Assembly: GCA_025964325.1 (NCBI GenBank)
Contig: JAOPZA010000174.1
Coordinates: 3,327 to 67,326 of the forward strand
From: Conexibacter sp.
GTDB taxonomy: Bacteria; Actinomycetota; Thermoleophilia; Solirubrobacterales; Solirubrobacteraceae
Direction: 5' to 3'
DNA: 64,000 bases
Part shown: in pieces, positions 1 through 52,779 of the stretch
Numbering within the stretch: the first letter of the stretch is position 1
Layout: each line of letters starts with the position of its first letter
Position numbers and translations under genes: made by a program
Notes under the pieces: model-generated
What the model saw: only the letters and a program-made list of their open reading frames with translations
What the model was told of the DNA's origin: nothing
Database searches by the model: none

Positions 1-125
1 CCGACGTGCGTGCCGGTCAGGCCAAGCGTGTGGCGCAGGAAGTCGGCCGCGTGCTCGCGCACCGAGACCTGCTCGCGGTGGACGGTTCCGTTCACCGTCA
101 CGGTGATCTCGACGGTGTCGCTCAT
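1..125 (-). CDS. (2Fe-2S)-binding small subunit of a xanthine dehydrogenase/CoxS-family Mo-hydroxylase; N-terminal part only, runs off the window
   Basis: Manual translation from ATG at 125: MSDTVEITVTVNGTVHREQVSVREHAADFLRHTLGLTGTHV, a typical CoxS N-terminus; start overlaps the stop of the CoxM-like gene. Confidence 0.85.
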   Translation of the reverse strand, partial: MSDTVEITVTVNGTVHREQVSVREHAADFLRHTLGLTGTHV

Positions 126-988
126 CGGTCCTCTCCTGCGGCAAGGTCGGTCAGCACGCGACGCACGTGCACGGGCACGAGGTGGCGGCGGTAGTCGGCG
201 CTCGCGCGCACGTCGTCGGGCGGGTCGGCGACCTCCAGCGCGAGCTGGGCGGCCTCCTCGATCGCGGCCGCGTCCCAGCGCGCGCCCTCGAGCCGCGCGG
301 CGGCGGCCGGCGCCAGCACCGGGCGGTCGTTGATCCCGCCGAGCGCGATCCGCACGTCGTGCCAGCGGCCGTCGGCGTCCTCGCTGCCGACCGCGACGAC
401 GCTGATCAGCGCGAAGTCGTTGTGCTTGCGGCCGCGCTCGAAGAAGCGGCAGCGCGACGGCGCGAGCGGGAAGCGCAGCGCGACGAGCAGCTCCTCGGGC
501 TCGAGCACGTTGGCGTAGGAGCCCTCGAAGAACTGCTCGATCGGGATCGTGCGCTCGCCGCCGCTCCCGCGCGCCAGCACGGAGGCGCCGAGCGCAAGGC
601 ACACGAGCCCCATCTCGCCGGTCGGATCCGACTGGGCGACGGCGCCGCCGAGCGTGCCGCGGTTGCGCACCTGGCGGTCGCCGATGTAGCGGACGACGTG
701 CGCGAGCAGCGGCAGCCGCTCGGAGATGACGGGCGAGCGCTCGAGCGTCGCGTAGCGCACGAGCGCGCCGACGGTCGTCTCGGAGCCGCTGCACTCGATC
801 CGCCCGAGCTCGTCCTCGAGCCCGTTGATGTCGATCAGGGCGGAGGGCCGCATCAGCCGCATCCCGAGCATCGGGACGAGGCTCTGGCCGCCCGCCAGCA
901 CGCGCGCCATGCCGGCGTGCTGGTCGAGCGCGTCGACCGCCTGCGCGACCGTCGCGGGGCGGATGTAGTCGAAGGGCGCGGGCTTCAC
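122..988 (-). CDS. FAD-binding medium subunit (CoxM/CutM family) of a Mo-hydroxylase
   Basis: MKPAPFDY start, LAGGQSLVPM, QVRNRGTLGG, RKHNDFA motifs. Confidence 0.92.
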   Translation of the reverse strand: MKPAPFDYIRPATVAQAVDALDQHAGMARVLAGGQSLVPMLGMRLMRPSALIDINGLEDELGRIECSGSETTVGALVRYATLERSPVISERLPLLAHVVRYIGDRQVRNRGTLGGAVAQSDPTGEMGLVCLALGASVLARGSGGERTIPIEQFFEGSYANVLEPEELLVALRFPLAPSRCRFFERGRKHNDFALISVVAVGSEDADGRWHDVRIALGGINDRPVLAPAAAARLEGARWDAAAIEEAAQLALEVADPPDDVRASADYRRHLVPVHVRRVLTDLAAGEDR

Positions 989-992
989 GCGC

Positions 993-2072
993 TCAGCTCC
1001 CCCCGAAGCTCATGAATCTCGCGAGCACGCGGTCGACGGCGCCGCCCTCGGCGCCCGAGGAGACCGTCTTCTGCGGCTTCGTGCTCCAGACCGTCTCCGG
1101 CCGCGCCTGCAGCAGGTGCAGGGCGCCGTCGTGGTCGACCGCCCACTCGAGGTCCTGCGGCGCCTTGCGGTGACGCTCGACGCGCTTGCCGAGCTCCGCG
1201 ATCGCGAGCACCTGCGCCTCGGTCAGGCACGGCTGCGAGCCGCGCTCGGCCTCGAGCGGCATCAGGTCGACCTCGCCGCGCGCCTCGTCGAAGCGGTACT
1301 CCTCCGTCTGGGTCGAGACGTCGCTCTCGAGCAGCTCGAGCGTGACCTTGTCGACGCGGAAGCGGTCGGGCGTGACGTCGCCCTTGACGACGCCCTCGCC
1401 GAGGCCCCAGCAGCCCTCGAGCACGATCTTCGAGCGGTCGCCGCTGATCGGGTCGAGCGTGAACATCACGCCGGCCGCGCGGGCCCTGACCATCTGCTGC
1501 ACGCCGACGCACATGCCGGGCAGCTCGTCGCCGGACATCTTCGCCTCCTCGGTCGGGCGGTACGTCAGCACCGCCGGGCCGAACAGGCCGGTCCAGCAGC
1601 GGCGCACGTGCGCGAGCACGGCGTCGGCGCCCTGGATCCACAGGTAGGTGTCGTACTGCCCGGCGAAGCTCGCGCCCTCGAGGTCCTCCGAGACCCCGCT
1701 CGAGCGCACGGCGACCGGCAGGTCGGGCGTGCCGGCGCGGCGCTCGAGCTGCGCGTACGCGTCGCGGATCTCCCGCTCGAGCGCGGCCGGCAGCGGCGCG
1801 GCGTCGATCAGCCGCGTCAGCTCGGCGCTGGCGGTCTCGACGGCGGCGAGGTCGTCGACGTCGAGCGAGGCGCGCACGCGGCGCAGCTCCTCGACCAGCC
1901 CGGTGCCCTCGGCGAAGAGGCGGAACGCCTCGGCCGTGACGCCGAACGCGAGCGGGACGGCGAAGCCGGCCGCGGTCATCTCGGCGAGCGAGCCGAGCTT
2001 GCCGCCCAGCTGCCCGTCGGGAACGTCGGTCGCGTCGTCGATCCAGACGATCGATCTCAGTGCTGCCGTCAT
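993..2072 (-). CDS. Stand-alone PEP/pyruvate-binding (PPDK/PEP synthase N-terminal ATP-grasp) protein
   Basis: GGKLGSLAEM, VAVRSSGVSEDLEGASFAGQYDTYL, WGLGEGVVKG, QDLEWA, LLQARPETVWS; GGAGG upstream of ATG 2072; no phospho-His or pyruvate domain. Confidence 0.88.
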   Translation of the reverse strand: MTAALRSIVWIDDATDVPDGQLGGKLGSLAEMTAAGFAVPLAFGVTAEAFRLFAEGTGLVEELRRVRASLDVDDLAAVETASAELTRLIDAAPLPAALEREIRDAYAQLERRAGTPDLPVAVRSSGVSEDLEGASFAGQYDTYLWIQGADAVLAHVRRCWTGLFGPAVLTYRPTEEAKMSGDELPGMCVGVQQMVRARAAGVMFTLDPISGDRSKIVLEGCWGLGEGVVKGDVTPDRFRVDKVTLELLESDVSTQTEEYRFDEARGEVDLMPLEAERGSQPCLTEAQVLAIAELGKRVERHRKAPQDLEWAVDHDGALHLLQARPETVWSTKPQKTVSSGAEGGAVDRVLARFMSFGGS

Positions 2073-2131
2073 GCTGCTCCCTCCTCGAGGATGCGGACGA
2101 CGCCGGTGTCGCCGTCGACTTCGATCGGCAT
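2069..2131 (-). pseudogene. 20-codon mini-ORF resembling the C-terminal end of a PEP-utilising mobile (swivel) domain protein
   Basis: MPIEVDGDTGVVRILEEGAA*; starts 2 nt after the nicX-like stop; its TGA overlaps the next ATG (ATGA). Confidence 0.6.
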
Positions 2132-2133
2132 CG

Positions 2134-3183
2134 TCAGGCCCGCGCGAGCTCGTCGGCCTTGAGCGCGTCGACGACGATGTCGCCGTCGACGACGATCGGC
2201 TCGTCGTCGAGGTAGAGCGTGCAGTTGCGCATCGGAACGTCGACGTGGCAGAGCGTCTCGTTGGGGCCGCCCAGCTCACCGTTCGGCCCGGTCGAGAACA
2301 GCACGTTGCCGTAGAACGAGCGGCCGTGCATGCCCATGCCGCGGCGGTCGTAGGCGAGGATCGACCACTGCGCCGTCTCCAGCATGCCCCAGCCGATGTG
2401 CGAGATCCCGTATGCGTTCGGGTCCTTGAAGGAGGCCATGTACTCGCGCAGCAGGTCGGCGTCGAGACCGCCCGCGATCCGCTCGATGCGACCCGCCGCG
2501 ATCGTCAGCTCGATCGGCGTCTGCACGTAGCTCTTGAACGGGAAGACGATGTCGCCGGGGGCGATCACGACGGTGCCGTCGACGCCGTCGTCGGCGCCGC
2601 CGGTGAAGAGGAAGCCGGACGGCCAGTGGTCCCAGCGGCCGGGCGTGTCGGTGTAGCCGTACTGCGTGATGACGGGGTACGTGCCCAGCTTGTAGGTGAC
2701 GTCGCTGCCGGCCGCGTTCGTGAAGCGCAGCGTCTGCGCGCTGCCGAGCAGCTCCGCGCCGGCCTCGACGCGCTCGCGCAACCGCGCGCTCGGCGCCATC
2801 GCGCGGATGTGCTCGAGCGGCTCGATGCAGAGCAGCACGCGCGTGCCGGACTCCTGGATCTCGAGCTGCTCCTTGGAGAACAGCAGGAAGACGGTGTCGA
2901 TCACGAGGTCGACCTGCTTGAGCGCCTCGATCGCGGGGCGGTTGCCGGCCAGCGGCGTCTCGCCGACCTCCCACGCGCCCTGCTCGCCGTCCAGGCTGGA
3001 GGCCGAGCGCGGCAGGTTCACGTTGAAGCCGATCGCGCCGAGCTGCTCGGCCGCGGCGAGGAACGCGTCGACGTACTCGCTGCGCTGCTTGCCCTGGGAC
3101 AGCACGGCGACGGTGCTGCCCTCGCCGATGCCGCACAGCGTCAGCTCCTCGCGGCACATCTCGGTGAAGGTGGGGACGCGCAT
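2134..3183 (-). CDS. nicX: 2,5-dihydroxypyridine 5,6-dioxygenase-like (NicX family, aminopeptidase-like fold)
   Basis: QYGYTDTPGRWDHWPSGF, SHIGWG, GNVLFSTGPNGELGG, CHVDVPMRNC; neighbours NicD- and NicF-like genes. Confidence 0.85.
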   Translation of the reverse strand: MRVPTFTEMCREELTLCGIGEGSTVAVLSQGKQRSEYVDAFLAAAEQLGAIGFNVNLPRSASSLDGEQGAWEVGETPLAGNRPAIEALKQVDLVIDTVFLLFSKEQLEIQESGTRVLLCIEPLEHIRAMAPSARLRERVEAGAELLGSAQTLRFTNAAGSDVTYKLGTYPVITQYGYTDTPGRWDHWPSGFLFTGGADDGVDGTVVIAPGDIVFPFKSYVQTPIELTIAAGRIERIAGGLDADLLREYMASFKDPNAYGISHIGWGMLETAQWSILAYDRRGMGMHGRSFYGNVLFSTGPNGELGGPNETLCHVDVPMRNCTLYLDDEPIVVDGDIVVDALKADELARA

Positions 3184-19520: not shown

Positions 19521-20475
19521 CGCATCTCCCGTCCCGTCAGGTGCACGAAGACGTCCTCGAGGCTGCCCTCGAGCCGGCGCAGCTCGACGAGCGCGTGGCC
19601 GTCCGCCTCGGCGGCCGCGAGCGCGGCCGGGGCGAGCCGCTCGCCCCCGCCGTAGACGCGCACGCGCCAGCGGCCCTCGCCGGCCTCCGCCACGTCGACC
19701 TTCTCCGCTCCCGGGAGCGCCGCGAACGGCGCCTCCTGCGGTCGCCCGCCTTCGAGCACGACGTCGATGCCGGCCTCGGCCGGCAGCAGCGTGCGCAGCC
19801 CGCGCGGCGTGTCGAGCGCGATGATCTTGCCGTGATCGACGACCGCGATGCGGTCGCAGAGGCGGTCGGCCTCGACCATGTCGTGCGTCGTAGGAAGAGC
19901 GTCGTGCCGCGCTCGCGCAGGTCGAGCATCGTCTCCCACAGGAACAGCCGCGACTGCGGGTCCAGGCCCGTCGTCGGCTCGTCGAGGAACAGCACCTGCG
20001 GCTGGTGCATCAACGCGCGCGCGATCATCAGCCGCTGCGCCATCCCGCCGGAGTATCTGCCGACCTGCTCGTCCGCGCGATCGGCGAGCCCGAAGCGCGC
20101 GAGCAGCTCCATCGCGCGCTCGCGCCGCTCACGCCGGCCGGCGCCGAAGTAGGCGGCGTGGAAGGTCAGGTTCTCGATCGCGGTCAGCGAGCGGTCGAGG
20201 TTGCTGAGCTGCGGCACGACGGCGATCCTGCGCTTGATCTCGACGGGCTCGCGGCGCACGTCGTGGCCATCGACGATGACCTCGCCGGCGGTCGGCCGCA
20301 CGCGCGTCGTGATGACGCCGATCGTCGTCGTCTTGCCGGCGCCGTTCGGTCCCAGCAGTCCGAAGATCTCGCCCTCGCGCACGGCGAAGTCGATCCCGGC
20401 GACGGCGTCGGGGCCGTCGGCGCGGTAGCGCTTGCGCAGGCCCGCGACCTGCACGATCTCACGCTGCTCGGTCAT
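19517..20475 (-). pseudogene. ABC exporter ATP-binding protein split by an apparent 1-bp deletion
   Basis: GPNGAGKTT, YSGGM and LDEPT in one frame; THDMVEADRLCDRIA in another; junction CTC TTC CT_ ACG ACG CAC near 19892. Confidence 0.85.
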
Positions 20476-20575
20476 GCGCAGGACCCTACGCGACCGCCCG
20501 GCGGGGAACCGGCTGCGCGCGCGCCACCGCGGGTCTATCGTTCGCCGCCGATCTGCCGACGACGGAGGAGTGCTT

Positions 20576-21832
20576 GTGGCTGTTGACGTGAGCCAGGTCG
20601 CGACGGTCGCGACCGAGCCGGGGACGCTCCCGGAGACGATGACCGCATGGGTGATCCGCGAGGAGCGCCTGGGCGAGCCGCGCGACGCGTTCCAGCTCGA
20701 GGAGATCGAGACGCCCGCCCCGGGCGCGTTCGAGGTCGTCGTACGCGTCATGGCCGCCGGCGTCAACTTCAACAACGTCTGGGCCGCGCTCGGCGAGCCG
20801 GTCTCGGTGATGAAGTACGGCGACCATCCCCAGTACGGCCACCACATCGGCGGCTCGGACGCCTCCGGAGTCGTCTGGAAGGTCGGCGAGGGCGTGACGC
20901 GCTGGAAGCCGGGCGACGAGGTCGTCGTGCACTGCAACCAGGCCTCCTACGAGGATCCCGAGGTGCACGGCCTCGACCCGCTCGCCGCGCCGTCGCAGAG
21001 CATCTGGGGCTACGAGACGACCTGGGGGTCGTTCGCGCAGTTCTGCAGAGTGCAGGCCCAGCAGCTGCTGCCGAAGCCGGCGGCGCTGTCGTGGGAGGAG
21101 GCCGCCAGCTACGGCCTCACCTACTTCACCGCCTACCGCATGCTGCTCGACCAGGCCGCGCTGCAGGCCGGCCACCGCGTGCTGATCTGGGGCGCGGCCG
21201 GCGGCCTCGGCGTCTTCGCGACGCAGCTCTGCGCGCTGACCGGCGCGCAGTCGGTCGGCGTCGTCTCCTCGGCCGAGAAGGGCGAGCTGGTGAAGAGACT
21301 CGGAGCCGTCGACTACATCGACCGCAACGAGTTCAAGGGCATGATGCGCCGCGGCGGCGAGTCGCCGGAGGAGGAGAAGGCGCGCTTCAAGGAGTCGCGC
21401 CGCTTCTGCAAGGCGGTCGAAGAGCGCCTGGGCGGCCCGCCCGATATCGTCTTCGAGCACGTCGGCAGAGCGACGTTCCCGACCTCGGTGCTCGCGGTGA
21501 GACCGTTCGGGAGAGTCGTCATCTGCGGCGCGACCTCGGGCTACCAGCTCGACTTCGACGTGCGGTACCTCTGGATGCGACAGAAGCAGATCATCGGCTC
21601 TCACTTCGCCAACGCCTGGGAGGCGACGAAGGCCAACGAGCTGATCGAGCAGTCGCTCGTCCGGCCGGTCCTGTGGCAGACGATGGGCTTCGAGCAGGTG
21701 GCCGAAGCGCACCAGTTACTTCGAGACAACAAGCACCTCGGCAAGATCGCGATCCTCGTCGGCGCCACCGCCGAAGGACAGGGCAAGACCGCCGACGGGC
21801 CGGGTGCGATCCGAGCAGAGGTTGGTGCGTAG
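20576..21832 (+). CDS. ccr: Crotonyl-CoA carboxylase/reductase
   Basis: MAAGVNFNNVWAALG, HIGGSDASGVVW, IWGYET, YLWMRQKQIIGSHFAN; GGAGG RBS. Confidence 0.93.
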   Translation: MAVDVSQVATVATEPGTLPETMTAWVIREERLGEPRDAFQLEEIETPAPGAFEVVVRVMAAGVNFNNVWAALGEPVSVMKYGDHPQYGHHIGGSDASGVVWKVGEGVTRWKPGDEVVVHCNQASYEDPEVHGLDPLAAPSQSIWGYETTWGSFAQFCRVQAQQLLPKPAALSWEEAASYGLTYFTAYRMLLDQAALQAGHRVLIWGAAGGLGVFATQLCALTGAQSVGVVSSAEKGELVKRLGAVDYIDRNEFKGMMRRGGESPEEEKARFKESRRFCKAVEERLGGPPDIVFEHVGRATFPTSVLAVRPFGRVVICGATSGYQLDFDVRYLWMRQKQIIGSHFANAWEATKANELIEQSLVRPVLWQTMGFEQVAEAHQLLRDNKHLGKIAILVGATAEGQGKTADGPGAIRAEVGA

Positions 21833-27189: not shown

Positions 27190-28080
27190 TCAGGCCTGAT
27201 GCTCCGCCGCCTCGCGCTCGGTGCGCTTGCGCCAGTAGCGCCCGAGACCCATCTGCAGGTGCGAGGGCGGCACCGCCAGCTCGTAGGCCGTCGCGGTCCC
27301 TGGGTCGACCTCGCGCTCGAGCAGGCCGTGGATCGTTCGCTCGAGCGCGCCGGGATCGTCCTGGGCGACGCGCGCGAGGCCGGCGAGGTCGCGCAGCGAG
27401 GCGCGCGTCGCCTCCAGCTGCGCGACCGCCTCCTCGACCACCCCGAAGTGCGTCAGGCCGAGGCTCGTCGGCTGCCACGCGGCGATCAGGTCGAGCGACG
27501 CCTCCCATGCCTCGACGTCGATGTCGGGCGGCGGGGTCGGCGCGATCGTGAGCCGCGAGGGCGGGATCCGCACGCCCGCGACGTCGCCGACGAACGCCCG
27601 GCCGCTCGACTCGTGGAGGTAGGCGACGTGATGGGACGCGTGACCGGGCGTGTAGGCGACGCGTATGCCGCCAGCGAGGGCGATCGTCTCCCCGCCGACG
27701 AGCGGGTGGATCCGCTCGGCCGGCACCGGCAGCATCTCGCCCCAGAGCGTCGCCATGTTGTCCTCGCCGTACAGGCGCCCGGCGCTGGCCAGCAGCTTGG
27801 AGGGATCGACGACGTGCGGCGCGCCGCGCTCGTGCACGTAGACGTCGAGGTCGGGCCAGCGCGCGACGAGCGCGCCGGTCGCCGCCGCGTGGTCGAGATG
27901 GATGTGCGTCAGCAGCACGGCGCGCGGGCGCCAGTCGCCGAGCTCGGCGAGCAGCGTCGCGAGCGTCGCCGCCGGGCCCGGGTCGACGAGCACGTCGCCG
28001 ACTCGCCAGGCGCAGATGACGCGCTCGGTGCCGAGGTGGCGGGTGTCGATCGGGCGCTGGCCGAACTGGAGGTCCTTCAT
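27190..28080 (-). CDS. MBL-fold metallo-hydrolase
   Basis: THIHLDHAAA, TPGHASHH, FVGDVAG. Confidence 0.92.
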   Translation of the reverse strand: MKDLQFGQRPIDTRHLGTERVICAWRVGDVLVDPGPAATLATLLAELGDWRPRAVLLTHIHLDHAAATGALVARWPDLDVYVHERGAPHVVDPSKLLASAGRLYGEDNMATLWGEMLPVPAERIHPLVGGETIALAGGIRVAYTPGHASHHVAYLHESSGRAFVGDVAGVRIPPSRLTIAPTPPPDIDVEAWEASLDLIAAWQPTSLGLTHFGVVEEAVAQLEATRASLRDLAGLARVAQDDPGALERTIHGLLEREVDPGTATAYELAVPPSHLQMGLGRYWRKRTEREAAEHQA

Positions 28081-28105
28081 AGGGGCGAACCCTACAATCG
28101 GCCGC

Positions 28106-30190
28106 ATGAGCGATGCGTCCACGCCCCCAGCGCACGCGAGTTCCCCCGGCGTCGCGGGCGACGATCCCAGCCGTGGAACTCGCAATGCGAAGCACCGCCT
28201 TCCGGAGCGCGACCGTCCGTGGCTGATGCGGACGTACGCCGGCCACTCGACCGCGGAGAAGTCGAACGAGCTCTACCGCGGCAACCTCGCGAAGGGCCAG
28301 ACGGGGCTCTCGATCGCCTTCGACCTGCCGACGCAGACGGGCTACGACCCCGATCACGAGCTGGCGCGCGGCGAGGTCGGCAAGGTCGGCGTGCCGGTCG
28401 CGCACAAGGGCGACATGGAGACGCTGCTCGACGGCATCCCGCTCGACCAGATGAACACGTCGATGACGATCAACGCGACGGCCGCCTGGCTGCTGGCGCT
28501 CTACATCGTCGCGGCCGAGGACCAGGGCGTCGGCGCCGACGCGCTTCAGGGCACGACGCAGAACGACATCATCAAGGAGTACCTGAGCCGCGGCACCTAC
28601 GCCTTCCCGCCGGCTCCCTCGATGCGGCTGATCGCCGACATGGTCGCCTACACCGTCGAGCAGGTGCCGAGGTGGAACCCGATCAACATCTGCTCCTACC
28701 ACCTGCAGGAGGCGGGCGCGACGCCCGTGCAGGAGATCGCCTACGCGATGAGCACCGCGATCGCCGTCCTCGACGAGGTCCGCCCGCGCGTGCGCGAGGA
28801 GCTGATGGGCAGAGTCTTCTCGCGCATCTCGTTCTTCGTCAACGCCGGGGTGCGGTTCATCGAGGAGCACGCCAAGCTGCGCGCGATGGCGGTCCTGTGG
28901 GACGAGCTCGGCCGCGAGCGCTACGGCGTCACGGACGAGAGCCAGCGCCGCTTCCGCTACGGCGTGCAGGTCAACTCGCTCGGCCTGACGGAGGCGCAGC
29001 CGGAGAACAACGTCCAGCGGATCGTGCTTGAGGCGCTCGCGGTCACGCTCGGGCGCGACGTCCGCGCCCGAGCCGTGCAGCTGCCCGCCTGGAACGAGGC
29101 GCTCGGACTGCCGCGACCGTGGGACCAGCAGTGGTCGCTGCGGCTGCAGCAGGTGCTGGCGTTCGAGACCGACCTGCTCGAGTACCCGGACATCTTCGAG
29201 GGCTCGGTCGTGATGCAGGGGCTCGTCGGCGAGCTGCTCGCCGGCGCCCGCGCGGAGATCGCGATCGTCGCCGAGCACGGCGGCGCCGTCGAGGCGGTGC
29301 CGTACATGAAGTCGGCGCTGGTCGAGTCCCACCGCGAGCGGATCCGCCGGATCGAGACCGGCGAGCTGACCGTCGTCGGCCAGAACAGATTCACCGAGAC
29401 CGAGCCCTCGCCGCTGACGGCCGACGGCGACGGCGGGATCCTCGTCGTCGACCCCGATGTCGAGCGGGGACAGAAGGAGGCGCTCGCGGCGTGGCGCGCG
29501 GCGCGCGACCAGGCGGCCGTCGACGGCGCGCTCGCGGAGCTGGCGCGCGTCGCCGGCAGCGACGAGAACGTGATGCCGGCGACGATCGCCGCCGCACGCG
29601 CCGGTGCGACGACGGGCGAGTGGGCGCAGACGCTGCGCGACGCGTTCGGCTCCTACCGCGGCCCGACCGGCGTCGGCGAGGCCGTCGCGCTCGGCGACGC
29701 CTCGCTCGAGGACGTGCGCGACGAGGTCGAGCGGCTCTCCGAGGCGCTCGGGCGACGGGTCAAGATCCTCGTCGGCAAGCCCGGCCTCGACGGCCACTCG
29801 AACGGCGCCGAGCAGATCGCGGTCGCCGCGCGCGACGCCGGCATGGAGGTCGTCTACGAGGGGATCCGCCTGACGCCGGCGCAGATCGCGGCCTCGGCGC
29901 TGCAGGAGGGCGTCCACGTCGTCGGCCTCTCGATCCTCTCCGGCTCCCATCGCGAGTTGATCCCGTCGGTGACGGCGGCGCTGCGCGAGGCCGGCGTCGG
30001 CGACGTGCCCGTGATCGTCGGCGGGATCATCCCGACGGCCGACGTCGCGGCGCTGCGCGCGGCCGGCGTCGCCGCCGTCTACACGCCGAAGGACTTCGAC
30101 ATCTCGCGCATCATGCGCGACATCGTCGCGCTGGTGAGCGACCGCAACGGCCTGTCGGCGACATCCGCCGCCGACTCCCGCTCGACGTAG
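28106..30190 (+). CDS. meaA: B12-dependent ethylmalonyl-CoA mutase (Ecm/MeaA)
   Basis: RDRPWLMRTYAGHS, LSIAFDLPTQTGYD, NICSYHLQEAGATP, GKPGLDGHSNGAEQIA; TACAAT 7 nt upstream. Confidence 0.93.
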   Translation: MSDASTPPAHASSPGVAGDDPSRGTRNAKHRLPERDRPWLMRTYAGHSTAEKSNELYRGNLAKGQTGLSIAFDLPTQTGYDPDHELARGEVGKVGVPVAHKGDMETLLDGIPLDQMNTSMTINATAAWLLALYIVAAEDQGVGADALQGTTQNDIIKEYLSRGTYAFPPAPSMRLIADMVAYTVEQVPRWNPINICSYHLQEAGATPVQEIAYAMSTAIAVLDEVRPRVREELMGRVFSRISFFVNAGVRFIEEHAKLRAMAVLWDELGRERYGVTDESQRRFRYGVQVNSLGLTEAQPENNVQRIVLEALAVTLGRDVRARAVQLPAWNEALGLPRPWDQQWSLRLQQVLAFETDLLEYPDIFEGSVVMQGLVGELLAGARAEIAIVAEHGGAVEAVPYMKSALVESHRERIRRIETGELTVVGQNRFTETEPSPLTADGDGGILVVDPDVERGQKEALAAWRAARDQAAVDGALAELARVAGSDENVMPATIAAARAGATTGEWAQTLRDAFGSYRGPTGVGEAVALGDASLEDVRDEVERLSEALGRRVKILVGKPGLDGHSNGAEQIAVAARDAGMEVVYEGIRLTPAQIAASALQEGVHVVGLSILSGSHRELIPSVTAALREAGVGDVPVIVGGIIPTADVAALRAAGVAAVYTPKDFDISRIMRDIVALVSDRNGLSATSAADSRST
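28136..28183. mobile_element. 48-bp miniature inverted-repeat element in frame in the Ecm N-terminus
   Basis: GCGAGTTCC...GGAACTCGC termini; GAGTTCCCCCG and GCCGTGGAACTC shared exactly with intergenic 55385-55431. Confidence 0.65.
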
Positions 30191-45966: not shown

Positions 45967-46046
45967 GGGGCGCGATGAGTCACGAGATCGCTCCTCGGAG
46001 CCGGGCGCAGGGTCCCGCCGCTGCAGGCAGCATAGAATCCCCGTTC

Positions 46047-46613
46047 ATGGAGGGCTCCACCGAGACAGTCCGCAGCTGGTTGCGCTGCTATCGCTGCTGG
46101 TCGCAGAACCTCGAGGTGCAGGTGCACTACGAGGGGATCCACCGCATCGATCCGGCGACCGGCGAGCGCGCCGAGGTCGTCGACGAGATGCAGGAGGCGG
46201 TCGTGCAGTGCCTCGACTGCATGCACGACCAGCCGCACCTGGGCTTCCACAACGGCCGCGTCGAGCCGATCGAGGACCGCTGGGAGCGGATGGTCGCCGG
46301 CACTCCCTGGGTCGCCTCCTGCACCGTCACGGTCGAGGCCGACGACGTCGAGACCTGCTCCGGCCCGGAGGCCGGCGACGCACTCTCCTACGCCGCCTTC
46401 GGCGACCACGGCACGCGCGAGTTCTTCACCCACGTGCGCTTCCACAAGCACGAGGACGACCAGATCGTCGTCCACCTGCTGGTCGAGCTCTACGCGCGCT
46501 CGAGCGAGGAGGCGACCGACGTGCTGGAGACCGCCGCCCGCGGCTCGCTGACGATCACCTCGCTCGCCGAGGAGTCGCGCCCGCCCGCCTCGACCGGCGA
46601 CGACCGCCACTGA
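46047..46613 (+). CDS. Hypothetical protein with an N-terminal Zn-ribbon
   Basis: CYRC...CLDC; TAGAAT 8 nt upstream of ATG. Confidence 0.75.
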   Translation: MEGSTETVRSWLRCYRCWSQNLEVQVHYEGIHRIDPATGERAEVVDEMQEAVVQCLDCMHDQPHLGFHNGRVEPIEDRWERMVAGTPWVASCTVTVEADDVETCSGPEAGDALSYAAFGDHGTREFFTHVRFHKHEDDQIVVHLLVELYARSSEEATDVLETAARGSLTITSLAEESRPPASTGDDRH

Positions 46614-46724: not shown

Positions 46725-48536
<1,812 letters not shown>

Positions 48537-48550
48537 GTGATCTCCTCCGG

Positions 48551-49099
48551 TCATGCGACGTTGCCCTCCGCGCCGTTCGCGCTCACGCCAGGCGTCTTGC
48601 GGGGGACCAGGACGAGGCGCTTGAACTCCGCGACCAGCACGCCGTCCTGGTTCAGCACGCGCGTGTGGACCTTCACGACCCCGCGATCGAGCTTCGACTT
48701 CGACGGCTTGACGTCGAGCACCTCGGTCTCGCAGAAGAGGGTGTCCCCGTGGAAGACCGGATTCGGGTGGCTCAGCTCCTCGGTCGCGAGGTTCGCGATC
48801 GCCTTGCCGGAGATGTCCGAGACCGACATCCCGAGCGCGAGCGAGTAGACGAGCGGGCCGACGACGACGTTGCGGCCCTGCTGCGACCCGGCCGCGTAGA
48901 CGTCGTTCAGGTGCAGCGGGTGGTGGTTCATCGTGATGAGGCAGAAGAGGTGGTCGTCGGACTCGGTGACCGTCTTCGCGGGCCAGTGCTTGTAGACCGC
49001 GCCGACTTCGAACTCCTCCAGATAGCGGCCGTACGGGTGGGCGCCCGAGGCCTCGCGTGCCGCCTGGTCGGTTTCGACTCCTTGGGTGGTTTCGCTCAT
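48551..49099 (-). CDS. MaoC-family dehydratase (candidate mesaconyl-CoA hydratase)
   Basis: [27 protein letters not shown]. Confidence 0.85.
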
Positions 49100-49249
49100 G
49101 GGGTAGCTGGACCGTCCTGATTTCGCCGGGAGAAAGATGAGAAGTGTGACGTTTCCGCGTCGCGGATGCGTAGTTCCATAGTGAGTGCATCGGCGCGAGG
49201 GGGTCGCGGTCTACGATTCGCCGGCCCAGACCCAAGGAGATCCCAGCTC

Positions 49250-50311
49250 GTGCGCAATCCCCGTGACTTCGGAAAGCCCCTCGCCGTCGGTGCTCCCGAA
49301 CCGCTCCTCGACGTCCCGTTCAAGCCCTCGCGGATGATCCACTTCCTCGACGCGAGCAACGACAAGATGGTCGCGAAAGTTCCCGACATCGCACGCAAGA
49401 CCGACATCCTGCTCGGCAATCTCGAGGACGCCGTACCGGTCGATCGCAAGGAGGCGGCGCGCGAGGGGCTGATCAGAGTCGGGCGCGAGTTCGACCTCGG
49501 AGAGACGCAGCTGTGGACGCGCGTCAACAGCCTCGACAGCCCGTGGGTGCTCGACGACCTGCTGCGGCTCGTCGGCGAGATCGGCGACAGACTCGACGTG
49601 ATCATGGTGCCGAAGGTCGAGGGCGCCTGGGACATCCACTACGTCGACCGCCTGCTCGCACAGCTGGAGGCCAAGCACGGCGTGCAGAAGCCGATCCTCG
49701 TGCACGCGATCCTCGAGACCTCGCTCGGCGTCGCGAACCTGGAGGAGATCGCCGCCGCGAGTCCGCGCATGCAGGGCATGAGCTTCGGTCCGGCCGACCT
49801 CGCCGCCTCGCGCCGGATGAAGACGACGCGCGTCGGCGGCGGTCATCCGGGCTACGTCGTGATCGCCGATCCGAGCGAGGACGGCGGCCCGCGCGCGACC
49901 GCGCAGCAGGACCTCTGGCACTACTCGATCGGCCGCATGGTCGACGCCTGCACGGCGACCGGGATCCTGCCCTTCTACGGCCCCTTCGGCGACATCTCCG
50001 ACGACCTCGGCTGCGAGGCGCAGTTCCGCGCCGCGTTCCTGATGGGCTGCGTCGGCGCCTGGTCGCTGCACCCGCGACAGATCGAGATCGCCAAGCGCGT
50101 CTTCAGCCCCGATCCCGACGAGGTCAGATTCGCCAAGCGCGTGATCGAGGCGATCCCCGACGGGCGAGGCGTTCACATGCTCGACGGCAAGATGCAGGAC
50201 GATGCGACCTGGAAGCAGTGCCAGGTGATGGTCCACCTCGCGGAGCTGCTGGCGCAGAAGGATCCCGAGCTGGCCGAGGCCTACGGGTTCGTCACCACGA
50301 CAGGGAGCTGA
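49250..50311 (+). CDS. mcl: Malyl-CoA/beta-methylmalyl-CoA lyase (CitE/HpcH superfamily)
   Basis: [60 protein letters not shown]. Confidence 0.88.
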
Positions 50312-50313
50312 GC

Positions 50314-51522
50314 GTGCGTTTCTTCGAGTACGAGTCGCGGCAGATCGTCGCGAAGGCCGGCATCCCGGTCTCCAGACACGGCTTCGCCACCACCCCGGAG
50401 GAGGCGCGGCGGATCGCCGAGGAGATCGCCGGCCCCGTCGTGATCAAGTCGCAGGTGCTGACCGGCGGCCGCATGAAGGCCGGCGGCGTGAAGTTCGCCG
50501 ACACGCCCGACGAGGCGGCCGAGCACGCCGCGTTCGTCCTGCAGCTGGAGATCAACGGCCACATGCCGCGGGGCGTACTGGTCGACTCGCGCGTGTCGGT
50601 CAAGCAGGAGTACTACGCCGGCGTCGTCTGGGACGGGATCCGCAAGCAGCCGGTGATGCTCTTCAGCGACATGGGCGGGATCGACATCGAGGAGGTCGCC
50701 GAGACCCATCCCGACCACGTCGGCCGCGGCTGGTTCTCGAACCTGACCGACGTCTCGGACTACCAGGCGAAGCAGGTGATCGCCTCGATCGGCGTGACCG
50801 GCGCCGCGCTGACGCGCGCCACGCCGATCCTCACGCGGCTCGCGCAGCTGTTCGTCGAGCGCGACATGACGCTCGCGGAGATCAACCCACTGGCGCAACT
50901 CGAGGACGGCTCGTTCGTCGCCGTCGACGCGCACATGGACATGGAGAACGAGGCCCGCCCACGCCAGAAGCAGCTCCTGAAGGAGCTCGGCGTCGGCGAC
51001 GAGGAGACGCGCCAGGCGCGCGAGGCGACCCCGTTCGAGCTCGCCGGCGAGGCCGTCGACGCGGCGTCGCACCGCGGCGTCGCCGGCAACGTGACGGAGT
51101 TCGACGGCAACCTCGGGCTCGTGATCGGCGCCGGCGGCGGCTCGCTGACGCTCTTCGACGCGGTCCGCGCTCATGGCGGCAAGCCCGCCAACTACTGCGA
51201 GATCGGCGGCAACCCGTCGGTCGAGAAGGCGTGCGGCCTGGCGAAGCTCGTGCTGCAGAAGCCGGGCGTCGACAAGATCGCGGTGATGATGTCGATCGTC
51301 TCCAACACGCGCGTCGACATCGTCGCGCGCGGCGTCATCAAGGCGTGCGTGGAGCTGGGCTACGACCCGGGCGAGAAGATCGCGATCTTCCGCATCCCGG
51401 GCGCCTGGGAGGACGAGGGCTTCAAGATCCTCGAGAGATACGGAGTCGAGTACTGCGACCGCTCCGTCTCGATGCACGAGGCTGCGCGCCGCGCCGTCGA
51501 GAAGATCGGAGTGGCCGCCTGA
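50314..51522 (+). CDS. ADP-forming acyl-CoA ligase, ATP-grasp (beta) subunit, SucC-like but divergent
   Basis: FEYESRQI, KSQVLTGGRMKAGGV, EINPL; IGAGGGSLTLFD where SucC has NGAGLAMATMD. Confidence 0.85.
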   Translation: MRFFEYESRQIVAKAGIPVSRHGFATTPEEARRIAEEIAGPVVIKSQVLTGGRMKAGGVKFADTPDEAAEHAAFVLQLEINGHMPRGVLVDSRVSVKQEYYAGVVWDGIRKQPVMLFSDMGGIDIEEVAETHPDHVGRGWFSNLTDVSDYQAKQVIASIGVTGAALTRATPILTRLAQLFVERDMTLAEINPLAQLEDGSFVAVDAHMDMENEARPRQKQLLKELGVGDEETRQAREATPFELAGEAVDAASHRGVAGNVTEFDGNLGLVIGAGGGSLTLFDAVRAHGGKPANYCEIGGNPSVEKACGLAKLVLQKPGVDKIAVMMSIVSNTRVDIVARGVIKACVELGYDPGEKIAIFRIPGAWEDEGFKILERYGVEYCDRSVSMHEAARRAVEKIGVAA

Positions 51523-52445
51523 TGTCGATCCTGATCGATGCGACGACGACCTTCATCGTCCAGGGCATCACCGGCCGCGAGGCCGTCAACCTGACCCGCG
51601 AGTGCCTCGACTACGGCGAGGGCGCGCGCGTCGTCGGCGGCGTGACGCCGGGCCGCAAGGGCCGCGAGGTCCACGGCGTACCCGTCTTCGACACCGTCGC
51701 GCAGGCCGTCGAGCACCACGGCGGGCCGATCGACGGCTCGGTCGTGACGGTGCCGCCGGCCTTCACGAAGGACGCGGTGCTGGAGGCGATCGCGAACGGC
51801 GTCAAGCTCGTCGTGATCGTGACCGAGCGGATCCCGCGACGCGACGTCGCCGTGATGGTCGAGTTCGCCAGGCAGCACGACGCGCGCATCATCGGGCCCA
51901 ACTGCCTCGGCATCATCGTGCCCGACGTGATCAAGATGGGCGGCATCGGCGGCCCGGCGAGAGACGCGGCGAAGGCGTACACGCCGGGGCCGGTGGGCGT
52001 CATCTCGCGCTCCGGCGGCATGACGACCGAGATGTCCTCGACGCTGAGCGCCGCCGGCCTCGGCCAGTCGACGGCCGTCTCGATCGGCGGCGACGCCATC
52101 ATCGGCTCGTCCTACGCGGAGCTGATGCCGCTGTTCGAGGCCGACGAGCAGACGCAGGCGATCGTGATCTACACCGAGCCGGGCGGCCGCATGGAGGCCG
52201 AGCTGGCCGCGTGGGTCACCGAGCACGACTCTCGCCTGCCGATCGTCGCGTTCATGGCGGGCCGCTTCATGGACGAGATGCCGGGCATGAGCTTCGGCCA
52301 CGCCGGCACGATCGTCGAGGGCAAGGCCGACACGGCCGCGGAGAAGATCGCGCGCCTCGCCGAGGCCGGCATCGTCGTCGCGGAGGAGATCTCGCAGATC
52401 CCGGAGATCGTCAAGAGCAAGATCGCCGAGAGGAGTGCCGTCTGA
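51522..52445 (+). CDS. ADP-forming acyl-CoA ligase, CoA-binding (alpha) subunit, SucD-like
   Basis: IVQGITG, VGGVTPGRKG, IIGPNCLGII, SRSGGMT, FGHAG phospho-His motif. Confidence 0.9.
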   Translation: MSILIDATTTFIVQGITGREAVNLTRECLDYGEGARVVGGVTPGRKGREVHGVPVFDTVAQAVEHHGGPIDGSVVTVPPAFTKDAVLEAIANGVKLVVIVTERIPRRDVAVMVEFARQHDARIIGPNCLGIIVPDVIKMGGIGGPARDAAKAYTPGPVGVISRSGGMTTEMSSTLSAAGLGQSTAVSIGGDAIIGSSYAELMPLFEADEQTQAIVIYTEPGGRMEAELAAWVTEHDSRLPIVAFMAGRFMDEMPGMSFGHAGTIVEGKADTAAEKIARLAEAGIVVAEEISQIPEIVKSKIAERSAV

Positions 52446-52687
52446 TGCCCGCGCTGTTCATCAACGTCGAGGTCGACGAGCAGGTCGCGCAGGATCCCGC
52501 GCTGGCAGCGAAGCTGACCGAGGTCTGCCCCGTCGACATCTACGCGCAGAAGGGCGACGGGACGCTCGCGATCGTCGAGGAGAACCTCGACGAGTGCGTC
52601 CTCTGCCGCCTCTGCATCGACGCGGCGCCGCACGGCAGCGTGCGCGTCGTGAAGCTCTACGAGGACGGATCGGTCCTGCAGTCCTGA
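52445..52687 (+). CDS. Ferredoxin (FixX-like), probably one [4Fe-4S] cluster
   Basis: EVCPVDIY...DECVLCRLCIDAAP; ATG overlaps the upstream TGA. Confidence 0.85.
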   Translation: MPALFINVEVDEQVAQDPALAAKLTEVCPVDIYAQKGDGTLAIVEENLDECVLCRLCIDAAPHGSVRVVKLYEDGSVLQS

Positions 52688-52779
52688 GCGGCGACCGGCT
52701 TCGCGGCGACCGGCTTCGCGGCGACCGGCTTCGCCGGTCACTTGGGAGTTCGCCTGGCGGCGAACTCCCGGGAGTGACC
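52688..52779. repeat. 3 x 15-bp tandem repeat followed by an 11-bp TGGC-loop hairpin with GGGAGTTC/GAACTCCC ends
   Basis: (GCGGCGACCGGCTTC)x3 at 52688-52732; GGGAGTTCGCC-TGGC-GGCGAACTCCC at 52744-52769. Confidence 0.85.

Follow-up and report, generated by a model that had tools for sequence, protein, structure and literature searches.

A divergent acid–CoA ligase with a ferredoxin-like partner beside a malyl-CoA lyase gene in Conexibacter sp.: a candidate malate or citramalate thiokinase

Introduction

What does a pair of genes resembling those of succinyl-CoA synthetase (SCS) do when it lies directly behind a gene for a malyl-CoA lyase-like protein and in front of one for a small ferredoxin-like protein? 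This question is raised by a locus of Conexibacter sp. (Solirubrobacteraceae, Thermoleophilia; assembly GCA_025964325.1), found in a stretch of 64,000 nucleotides (contig JAOPZA010000174.1, positions 3,327–67,326, forward strand) that was analyzed as a whole and is referred to here as the window. A preliminary description, made from the DNA letters, named the four genes mcl, beta, alpha, and fdx and proposed a new ligase subfamily that may recover ATP from malyl-CoA. We now suggest that the ligase is a malate (or citramalate)–CoA ligase acting at the malyl-CoA node of the ethylmalonyl-CoA pathway, a reading whose substrate and direction are predictions and to which we give about even credence. 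The most likely substrate would be (S)-malate, possibly with (S)-citramalate as another.

Results

Beta and alpha are not the housekeeping SucCD

Beta and alpha were compared with the Pfam and NCBIfam profiles and with the Protein Data Bank (PDB). In Pfam, beta matched ATP-grasp_2 (177.7 bits), while its C-terminal half gave a weak Citrate_bind match (22 bits, cut-off 26.8) and no Ligase_CoA match; alpha matched CoA_binding, Succ_CoA_lig, and Ligase_CoA. Beta has an EINPL motif, and the GHAG phosphohistidine loop that the preliminary description had noticed in alpha lies within SFGHAGTIVEG, which aligned with the alpha subunits of SCS structures. ATP-grasp, CoA-binding, and GHAG elements together assign the ligase to the SCS/ATP-citrate lyase (ACL) superfamily of NDP-forming acid–CoA ligases, and the pair is predicted to be ADP-forming, with the ATP-grasp domain, the glutamate of EINPL, and the phosphohistidine of GHAG all retained.

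Neither subunit reached the NCBIfam cut-off of its SCS family (beta against SucC, NF001913, 262.1 bits with a cut-off of 370; alpha against SucD, NF004230, 282.4 bits with a cut-off of 336), and the score of beta against MtkA (NF010647) was 178.7 bits with a cut-off of 604. The preliminary description had warned that the pair might be the only sucCD of the genome. This concern falls away, as a canonical sucCD scoring 503.8 and 418.6 bits, over the NCBIfam cut-offs, is present on another contig (G000:C203:5152-7175). Beta is 28% identical to the SucC of this genome and alpha 39% identical to its SucD; the ligase is therefore regarded as a paralogue and not as the housekeeping enzyme.

The acid-binding loops of beta were examined by alignment. 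Where the genome's own SucC and Thermus SucC show GNGAGLVM, beta carries VIGAGGGSLTLFD, and the loop IGAGGGSLTLFD was verified. The SucC motifs NGAGL, FLDxGGG, and FGGITRCD, found in the genome's own SucC, in Thermus SucC, and in about 39 of the aligned representatives described below, are missing from beta, which has HRGVAG, GAGGGS, YCEIGGNP, and SNTRVD. In the PDB, the top matches were the subunits of Thermus SCS (3ufx_B for beta, 3ufx_A for alpha); 3ufx_B ranks first for beta because the ATP-grasp half is SCS-like. The second match for beta was 6hxq_B, the large subunit of Hydrogenobacter citryl-CoA synthetase (CCS). This alignment spans HRGVAG...GAGGGS...KPANYCEIGGNP...SNTRVD, a segment that SCS lacks or has in another form, and the motifs common to both proteins are HRGxAG, GGGS, KPAN, IGGNP, and NTR.

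The top database match for beta was an NCBI protein of 559 aa (P0001) with 73% identity over 82% of the query; its length may reflect a mis-called start or frame, or a fusion.

Beta forms a separate clade within the CCS/ACL branch

A set of 1.84 billion cluster representatives was searched exhaustively, and 81 full-length representatives were aligned and used for a maximum-likelihood tree of beta with SH-aLRT support. The representatives divide cleanly into a SucC-type group (NGAGL / FLDxGGG / FGGITRCD) and a CCS/ACL-type group, the latter forming one superclade (SH-aLRT 100). Within this superclade, the window beta belongs to a clade of 22 rows (SH-aLRT 99) that is sister to the CcsA/ACL-like clade. 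Hydrogenobacter CcsA falls into that separate clade of seven rows (SH-aLRT 99) together with ACL-like "ANFT" proteins, and the remaining CCS/ACL-type rows form a third clade of 12 (SH-aLRT 99). The likeness of the loop to ACL, first proposed in the preliminary description, is correct, because both the motif split and the tree put beta in the CCS/ACL superclade. Its notion of a new subfamily also gains support, with scores below the SucC, SucD, and MtkA cut-offs and a strongly supported clade of its own. Of the placement that had been left to phylogeny, the separation from SucC-type proteins and from CcsA was obtained. Beta is accordingly best described as a member of a distinct clade of the CCS/ACL branch with an SCS-like ATP-grasp half.

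Fdx almost always follows the ligase genes

Gene order was followed through 80 related loci from Solirubrobacterales species genomes (82–93% identity). An fdx gene comes after alpha in all 72 close loci whose contig reaches that far, and in the eight loci without fdx the contig ends inside or before alpha. It also comes after alpha in eight distant loci (L090, L092, L113, L114, L115, L121, L123, and L124), which are fdx-bearing clade members with 42–54% identity from genomes of 32–70% G+C. The order beta-alpha-fdx extends over the whole clade (42–100% identity, 32–73% G+C), and the stop and start codons often overlap; no fdx gene was found in L120 of the same clade or in L118 of the neighbouring clade. 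Beta-alpha-fdx is the invariant unit and is almost always kept in the clade, which settles the question of neighbourhood conservation that the preliminary description had raised for fdx.

In an alignment of 21 homologues (A1), C28-P29, C51, C54, and C57 of the small protein are invariant. These four cysteines match a single one of the cluster sites in a 2x[4Fe-4S] ferredoxin, C28 combining with C51, C54, and C57, so that the single-cluster assignment made earlier holds. Two CxxCxxCxxxCP motifs are not found in the protein, which retains one CP and one CxxCxxC. Matches to Fer4 families, those of Pfam among them, were weak and all under the cut-offs. An AlphaFold2 model was obtained with a pLDDT of 88.7; its top Foldseek match (E 5.6e-5) was the domain of archaeal RNA polymerase subunit D that carries the Fe-S cluster, and others were the Fe-S domain of ABCE1, the beta subunit of 3'-phosphoadenosine-5'-phosphosulfate (PAPS) reductase, and PsaC. 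The modelled fold is ferredoxin-like, and these structural matches point to no function.

Homologues in L092, L115, and L124 hold two complete cluster motifs, and those in L113, L090, and L123 are intermediate. Since the distant homologues have two motifs and the window protein has one site, the latter appears to be a degenerate descendant of a two-cluster ferredoxin. Its fixed position, its frequent translational coupling, and its retention whatever lyase gene is nearby make it probable that the small protein, with one [4Fe-4S] cluster, serves the ligase as a third subunit or as an obligate partner, a physical association that we infer. To our knowledge, there is no precedent for an Fe-S protein bound to an SCS-type ligase. 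An ordinary electron-carrier role is possible, for example with a 2-oxoacid:ferredoxin oxidoreductase (OFOR) as in L091, where a distant homologue is located after OFOR genes. A tblastn search of the genome with the L091 OFOR subunits gave no match, which is uninformative given how distant the query is.

The lyase and its MaoC-type neighbour

The lyase matched 6kin_A (E 1e-143) and 4l7z_A (E 5.8e-143) over 318 of 325 residues (2–319) of a query started at 49334. It is about 70% identical to the solved HpcH-family lyases of Chloroflexus and Roseiflexus, matches HpcH_HpaI in Pfam, and is the sole CitE/Mcl-type gene of the genome. Enzymes of the 4l7z/6kin type are the trifunctional malyl-/beta-methylmalyl-/citramalyl-CoA lyases of the 3-hydroxypropionate bi-cycle, and the window protein is predicted to be such a Chloroflexus-type (S)-malyl-CoA/beta-methylmalyl-CoA/(S)-citramalyl-CoA lyase (Mcl).

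The divergently transcribed neighbour encodes a MaoC protein with Pfam matches to MaoC_dehydratas (59 bits) and MC_hydratase (PF19315; 50.6 bits, cut-off 26.5). The latter match covers profile positions 10–177 of 353, and the protein has 182 aa against about 350 aa in the double hot-dog mesaconyl-CoA hydratase (Mch). Its best PDB matches, 4e3e_A and 8hgn_A (beta-methylmalyl-CoA dehydratase), align in their N-terminal half. The protein is probably a half-size relative of mesaconyl-CoA hydratase/beta-methylmalyl-CoA dehydratase; the genome has no other MC_hydratase-like gene, and in 35 related loci this one adjoins the lyase gene.

The tight lyase-ligase operon of the window is a minority arrangement among the 80 related loci. 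The gap between lyase and beta is below 400 nt in 14 loci, 0.4–2.5 kb in six, and above 2.5 kb in 39; six have no lyase within 5.9 kb upstream of beta, and in 15 a short contig, or one that breaks off within the lyase, puts the gap beyond reach. Most of the large gaps consist of an insert of about 4.3 kb (e.g., L019:1595-5919, L027, and L055) with an Rrf2 regulator and a sulfate/thiosulfate-type ABC transporter, whose binding protein and two permeases are encoded on the opposite strand.

Three orthologues carry one in-frame stop (TGA or TAG) each and are otherwise full-length: that of beta at G275:C1:486996-488195 and those of the lyase at G103:C5:9948-11015 and G262:C17:8963-10018. Sequencing errors, pseudogenes, and recoding are all possible.

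The ligase occurs together with ccr, a marker gene of the ethylmalonyl-CoA pathway

The enzyme that marks the ethylmalonyl-CoA pathway is crotonyl-CoA carboxylase/reductase; its gene, ccr, lies in the window about 28 kb upstream of the cassette (TIGR01751, 496 bits, cut-off 378.55) and on the same contig as the ligase, 14–40 kb away, in six related genomes. A fused acyl-CoA mutase encoded 6 kb past ccr scored 532 bits against the methylmalonyl-CoA mutase equivalog (cut-off 876), and both its N and C domains were above their cut-offs. Two other mutase paralogues elsewhere in the genome are 39–40% identical to it, and we infer that the window mutase is a candidate ethylmalonyl-CoA mutase (Ecm). 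No match to isocitrate lyase (PF00463) was found in the genome, which is 96.65% complete. The presence of ccr and the absence of isocitrate lyase, the two markers on which the assignment is based, predict that the ethylmalonyl-CoA pathway operates in this organism.

In Rhodobacter sphaeroides, Mcl1 is accompanied by a (3S)-malyl-CoA thioesterase, Mcl2 (Erb et al. 2010, cited in PMC8307300). The window's MaoC protein and Mcl are the putative enzymes of the steps carried out by Mch and Mcl1. Each is the sole candidate of its type in the genome, so that none is left for an Mcl2-type thioesterase. Another HpcH-family gene, on contig C237, was considered as Mcl2 and rejected; its DLEH motif, GntR regulators, and thiamine pyrophosphate (TPP) enzyme identify it as an HpcH/HpaI class II aldolase.

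A phyletic profile was drawn up for 25 genomes, comprising the sampled Thermoleophilia and two distant carriers. The close ligase is present in exactly the 11 ccr-positive genomes, which belong to the organism's own family and a second family of the order; all 11 have Mcl (76–100% identity), none has isocitrate lyase, and three have malate synthase, leaving eight without it. Eleven class relatives have no ligase homologue and likewise lack ccr and Mcl, apart from an Mcl fragment at a contig end in G171; five of them have isocitrate lyase and malate synthase, and one has isocitrate lyase alone. The three carriers of distant cassettes (G089, G028, and G208) have a homologue of 45–48% identity in place of the close ligase, and ccr, Mcl, isocitrate lyase, and malate synthase are all missing. 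In a sample of 301 genomes of the phylum, the ligase was found in 14: the 11 above, another class member, and two small distant-family genomes of 32% G+C.

Cassettes of the clade adjoin lyases of three types

Elsewhere in the clade, a CitE-type lyase gene lies directly beside beta-alpha-fdx in L090, L092, and L113. In L115 and L121 the cassette is joined by a gene for a 260-aa truncated citrate-synthase homologue of the Ccl type, which matched 6hxp_A (Hydrogenobacter citryl-CoA lyase) at 1.7e-61 and scored above the NCBIfam citryl-CoA lyase cut-offs. The cassettes of the clade thus adjoin three lyase types, Mcl, CitE, and Ccl, and the link to malyl/citramalyl-CoA lyase seen in the window extends to distant members, which support it better than the direct junction does. 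These lyases cleave esters of the malyl-, citramalyl-, and citryl-CoA series, which arise by Claisen addition of acetyl-CoA to glyoxylate, pyruvate, and oxaloacetate, respectively.

Other neighbours handle related acids: a class I fumarase/mesaconase in L090, glutamate mutase and methylaspartate ammonia-lyase (methylaspartase) in L115, a tripartite ATP-independent periplasmic (TRAP) dicarboxylate transporter and a PrpD-family protein in L113, aconitase-like LeuCD-type subunits in L121, and a full-length mesaconyl-CoA hydratase in L123. The contigs of P0131, P0122, and P0159 were too short for gene context. Because of the three lyase partner types and the acid-supplying neighbours, we propose with moderate confidence that the substrate class shared by the clade is a 2-hydroxy-dicarboxylate and its (3S)-3-carboxy-3-hydroxyacyl-CoA.

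In L115 (6931-15067; genome G028, with a similar arrangement in L114 of G208), genes for the glutamate mutase components MutS, MutL, and MutE and for methylaspartate ammonia-lyase diverge from beta-alpha-ferredoxin-Ccl, which looks like a methylaspartate route ending in ATP-dependent cleavage of citramalate (or citrate). G028 and G208 are genomes of 1.4–1.6 Mb and 32% G+C assigned to Actinomycetota.

Gene layout and other features of the window

The features are listed in Table 1. As the G+C content of the window is about 72%, reading frames were picked by third-position G+C and homology.

Table 1. Features of the window discussed in the text, in window coordinates.
Feature	Coordinates	Strand	Remarks
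Crotonyl-CoA carboxylase/reductase (ccr)	20429..21832	+	Longest open reading frame; homologous part from ~20627
Fused acyl-CoA mutase, 782 aa, candidate Ecm	27842..30190	+	acid_CoA_mut N and C domains
GTP-type phosphoenolpyruvate carboxykinase (PEPCK)	46725..48560	-	Neighbour of MaoC; context gene
MaoC-type (R)-hydratase, 182 aa	48551..49099	-	Divergent from the lyase gene
Divergent MaoC/lyase intergenic region, 150 bp	49100..49249	.	Presumed promoter region
HpcH-family lyase (Mcl), 353 aa	49250..50311	+	GTG start at 49250, TGA end at 50311
Ligase beta (ATP-grasp), 402 aa	50314..51522	+	GTG start
Ligase alpha (CoA-binding, phosphohistidine), 307 aa	51522..52445	+	
Ferredoxin-like protein (fdx), 80 aa	52445..52687	+	One complete Cys4 site

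The tight coupling reported for mcl, beta, alpha, and fdx was recovered with all four genes in place: 2 nt separate the lyase stop codon from the GTG of beta, and the stop and start codons overlap as TGATG between beta and alpha (51520–51524) and between alpha and fdx (52443–52447). The start given for the lyase is right, since relatives align from residue 1. With the alternative start at 49334, the PDB alignment opens at chain residue 30, and the 29 N-terminal residues by which the Chloroflexus and Roseiflexus lyases are longer would be missed. A scan for promoters and terminators found nothing, and the lack of a sigma-70-type consensus in the MaoC/lyase intergenic region is uninformative at 70% G+C.

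One base past the fdx stop codon begins a perfect tandem repeat of 15 nt, GCGGCGACCGGCTTC, in 3.1 copies (52688–52734), which occupies the gap before a convergent C-N hydrolase gene. Upstream of PEPCK, an open reading frame of 212 aa (45975–46613) matched no Pfam family in a profile search and is conserved in L012, L013, and L073 at 86–93% identity. The left end of the window (122–2504) encodes a CO-dehydrogenase-type flavoprotein subunit (FAD_binding_5 / CO_deh_flav_C) and a PPDK_N-domain protein.

Discussion

A possible ATP-conserving step at the malyl-CoA node

In the proposed scheme, acetate would be assimilated via the ethylmalonyl-CoA pathway, as suggested by ccr and the lack of a detectable isocitrate lyase. 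Mesaconyl-CoA would be turned by the MaoC protein and Mcl into beta-methylmalyl-CoA and then into glyoxylate and propionyl-CoA, after which Mcl would join the glyoxylate to acetyl-CoA, giving malyl-CoA. From malyl-CoA the ligase would set malate free with a gain of ATP, substituting for the Mcl2 thioesterase. Written in the opposite direction, the predicted reaction is acid + ATP + CoA <-> (3S)-3-carboxy-3-hydroxyacyl-CoA + ADP + Pi. By analogy with the family, the ATP-grasp domain would phosphorylate the histidine of the alpha subunit, from which an acyl phosphate and then the thioester would be formed. The ligase is expected to be reversible, and cleavage of malate, the direction taken by MtkAB in the serine cycle, would be chemically just as possible. 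The ATP recovery put forward in the preliminary description would fit the presence of ccr, the missing isocitrate lyase, and the eight of 11 relatives without malate synthase.

Several points weigh against this scheme. The genome has one malate synthase, so the ligase is not strictly required here. The 11 co-occurring genomes are one lineage of two families of one order, and their shared gene content may reflect a single inheritance and not independent evidence. About five relatives carry an Mcl paralogue of 36–40% identity that is possibly a thioesterase, and unrelated genes split lyase from ligase in most relatives. Taken over its whole length, beta has an ordinary SCS as its best PDB match, and MtkA sequences were left out of the beta tree. 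The contexts of distant clade members point to citramalate or citrate and not to malate. Our literature search, with most subscription journals outside its scope, returned no biochemistry for any clade member, nothing on the cassette or on a ferredoxin-linked SCS-like ligase, and nothing on the ethylmalonyl-CoA pathway in Conexibacter.

An extended version of the scheme, which we advance tentatively and think rather doubtful when all its parts are taken jointly, sees the cassette as a three-component thiokinase: a malate/citramalate thiokinase of independent origin, derived from the CCS/ACL branch, with the one-cluster ferredoxin as a stoichiometric subunit, that closes the ethylmalonyl-CoA pathway of Solirubrobacterales with a gain of ATP. 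The Fe-S subunit would couple the ligase step to redox, oxygen, or iron status, and the cassette would have been swapped among Mcl-, CitE-, and Ccl-type lyases as a modular family for ATP-dependent hydroxyacid cleavage parallel to ACL.

Alternative readings

The locus could instead be a catabolic module for C5-dicarboxylates. Its ligase would attach CoA to (S)-citramalate, or to itaconate or mesaconate; hydration of itaconyl- or mesaconyl-C4-CoA by the MaoC protein would give (S)-citramalyl-CoA, which the lyase would split into pyruvate and acetyl-CoA. Known routes for itaconate or mesaconate usually begin with a CoA transferase, whereas this one would begin with an ATP-dependent ligase. The best NCBIfam matches of the window proteins are indeed members of the itaconate module, RipB/Ich for MaoC (118 of 340) and RipC/Ccl for the lyase (122 of 375), though far under the cut-offs. 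The Chloroflexus-type lyase family also cleaves citramalyl-CoA, as the entry names of 4l7z and 6kin indicate, and the distant cassettes next to glutamate mutase with methylaspartase or to class I fumarase/mesaconase have sources of mesaconate or citramalate at hand. However, the structures closest to the MaoC protein are beta-methylmalyl-CoA dehydratases, and it is the sole Mch candidate in a ccr-bearing genome; the window holds no mesaconase, C5-acid transporter, or C5-acid regulator, and the ligase follows ccr exactly in the sampled genomes. We consider this module unlikely. A citrate-cleaving system is much harder still to credit, and we regard it as very improbable: here a true citryl-CoA synthetase and an HpcH-family citryl-CoA lyase would turn citrate into oxaloacetate and acetyl-CoA, and PEPCK would take the oxaloacetate. 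This would suit the C-terminal motifs shared with Hydrogenobacter CcsA, the label "citryl-CoA synthetase large subunit" given by JGI to some homologues, the clade members paired with Ccl-type lyases that NCBIfam names citryl-CoA lyase, and the position of PEPCK, which adjoins MaoC in the window, in 13 of the 80 related loci, and in L116 and L117. Yet the window lyase resembles malyl/methylmalyl/citramalyl-CoA lyases at about 70% identity and not CitE or Ccl, beta lies outside the CcsA clade, MaoC would be left without a role, and the link to ccr would go unaccounted for.

A more conservative view holds that the ligase is a second SCS isoenzyme or a ligase for an unrelated acid, that its synteny with the lyase is merely inherited, and that the small protein is an ordinary ferredoxin, for example for an OFOR. 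The top overall matches in the PDB and NCBIfam are SCS subunits, the sulfate-transport insert parts lyase from ligase in most relatives, one distant homologue (L091) comes after OFOR genes, and ancestral forms of the small protein hold two full cluster motifs. Set against this, the genome already has a canonical sucCD, the acid-binding loops of beta are unlike those of any SucC examined, chance would hardly have put divergent cassettes next to lyases of three types, and fdx stays after alpha whatever genes surround it. On balance we find this view quite improbable, and we carry forward the reading of the ligase as one for malate (or citramalate) that acts at the malyl-CoA node.

Implications

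Homologues of the ligase appear in public databases as succinyl-CoA synthetase, "ATP-grasp domain-containing protein", or "acetate-CoA ligase family protein", and such names therefore hide a metabolic step in reconstructions of soil Thermoleophilia, which are abundant and in which the cassette is abundant as well. If a malate/citramalate thiokinase did arise from the ACL/CCS lineage, this activity would have arisen at least twice in the superfamily. The ethylmalonyl-CoA pathway would gain an ATP-conserving end, where routes through a thioesterase or malate synthase discard that ATP, and a new ligase would be available for synthetic malyl-CoA/citramalyl-CoA pathways in designs for CO2 fixation or C1 assimilation. 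A Ccl-type lyase domain became fused in ACL; because the clade pairs with lyases of this type, the cassette would also bear on the evolution of ACL.

Comparison with known systems

The nearest characterized system is CcsAB/Ccl, the nearest by proposed function is MtkAB/Mcl, and the nearest by overall sequence is SucCD. CcsAB of Hydrogenobacter thermophilus (6HXQ; its lyase Ccl, 6HXP) is likewise a two-subunit ADP-forming ligase of the SCS superfamily. The window beta shares its HRGxAG, GGGS, xIGGNP, and NNTR-type loops and falls into the same strongly supported superclade. Like CCS, the window ligase would work with a separate lyase, which in some members of the window's clade is of the Ccl type. 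In contrast to CcsAB, the window beta lies in a sister clade, and its ATP-grasp half is nearer SCS; its partner is a Chloroflexus-type Mcl of the HpcH family and not a truncated citrate synthase, and nothing in the CCS structure entry corresponds to the additional ferredoxin-like gene. The predicted substrate is malate or citramalate rather than citrate, and the organism, an aerobic heterotroph by type, has the ethylmalonyl-CoA pathway and not the reductive TCA cycle. For the citrate-binding residues of ACLY, Asn346, Thr348, and Arg379, the literature yielded docking reports alone.

With MtkAB and malyl-CoA lyase of the serine-cycle methylotrophs, the ligase would share its proposed chemistry, malate + ATP + CoA <-> malyl-CoA, and in Methylobacterium this pair operates alongside the ethylmalonyl-CoA pathway. 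Beta differs from MtkA in having ACL/CCS-type loops and not the SucC-type loops ascribed to Mtk; together with the MtkA score below the cut-off, this would mean an independent origin of malate–CoA ligase activity. We know of no ferredoxin-like partner of MtkAB. SucCD and the window ligase agree in domain order, GHAG loop, CoA-binding fold, and ATP-grasp domain, whereas the latter scores below both NCBIfam cut-offs, has its acid-binding loops replaced, lies in a separate clade, and is almost always followed by fdx.

Two further systems are related by logic. Mcl2 occupies the same pathway position as the ligase would in the proposed scheme, that is, removal of CoA from the malyl-CoA made by Mcl; as a hydrolase of the CitE family, Mcl2 squanders the thioester, whereas the ligase would conserve its energy as ATP. 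The itaconate module Ict/Ich/Ccl (RipABC) follows the same sequence of activation, hydration, and cleavage with a MaoC-type hydratase and an HpcH-family lyase; in the window, however, activation would depend on an ATP-dependent ligase and not on a CoA transferase, and lyase and hydratase are nearer Chloroflexus Mcl and Mch. The window ligase falls outside the CcsA clade and below the MtkA and SucCD cut-offs. We therefore see in it a new clade of the SCS/ACL superfamily that comes with an accessory protein new to that superfamily and, probably, with a new substrate assignment.

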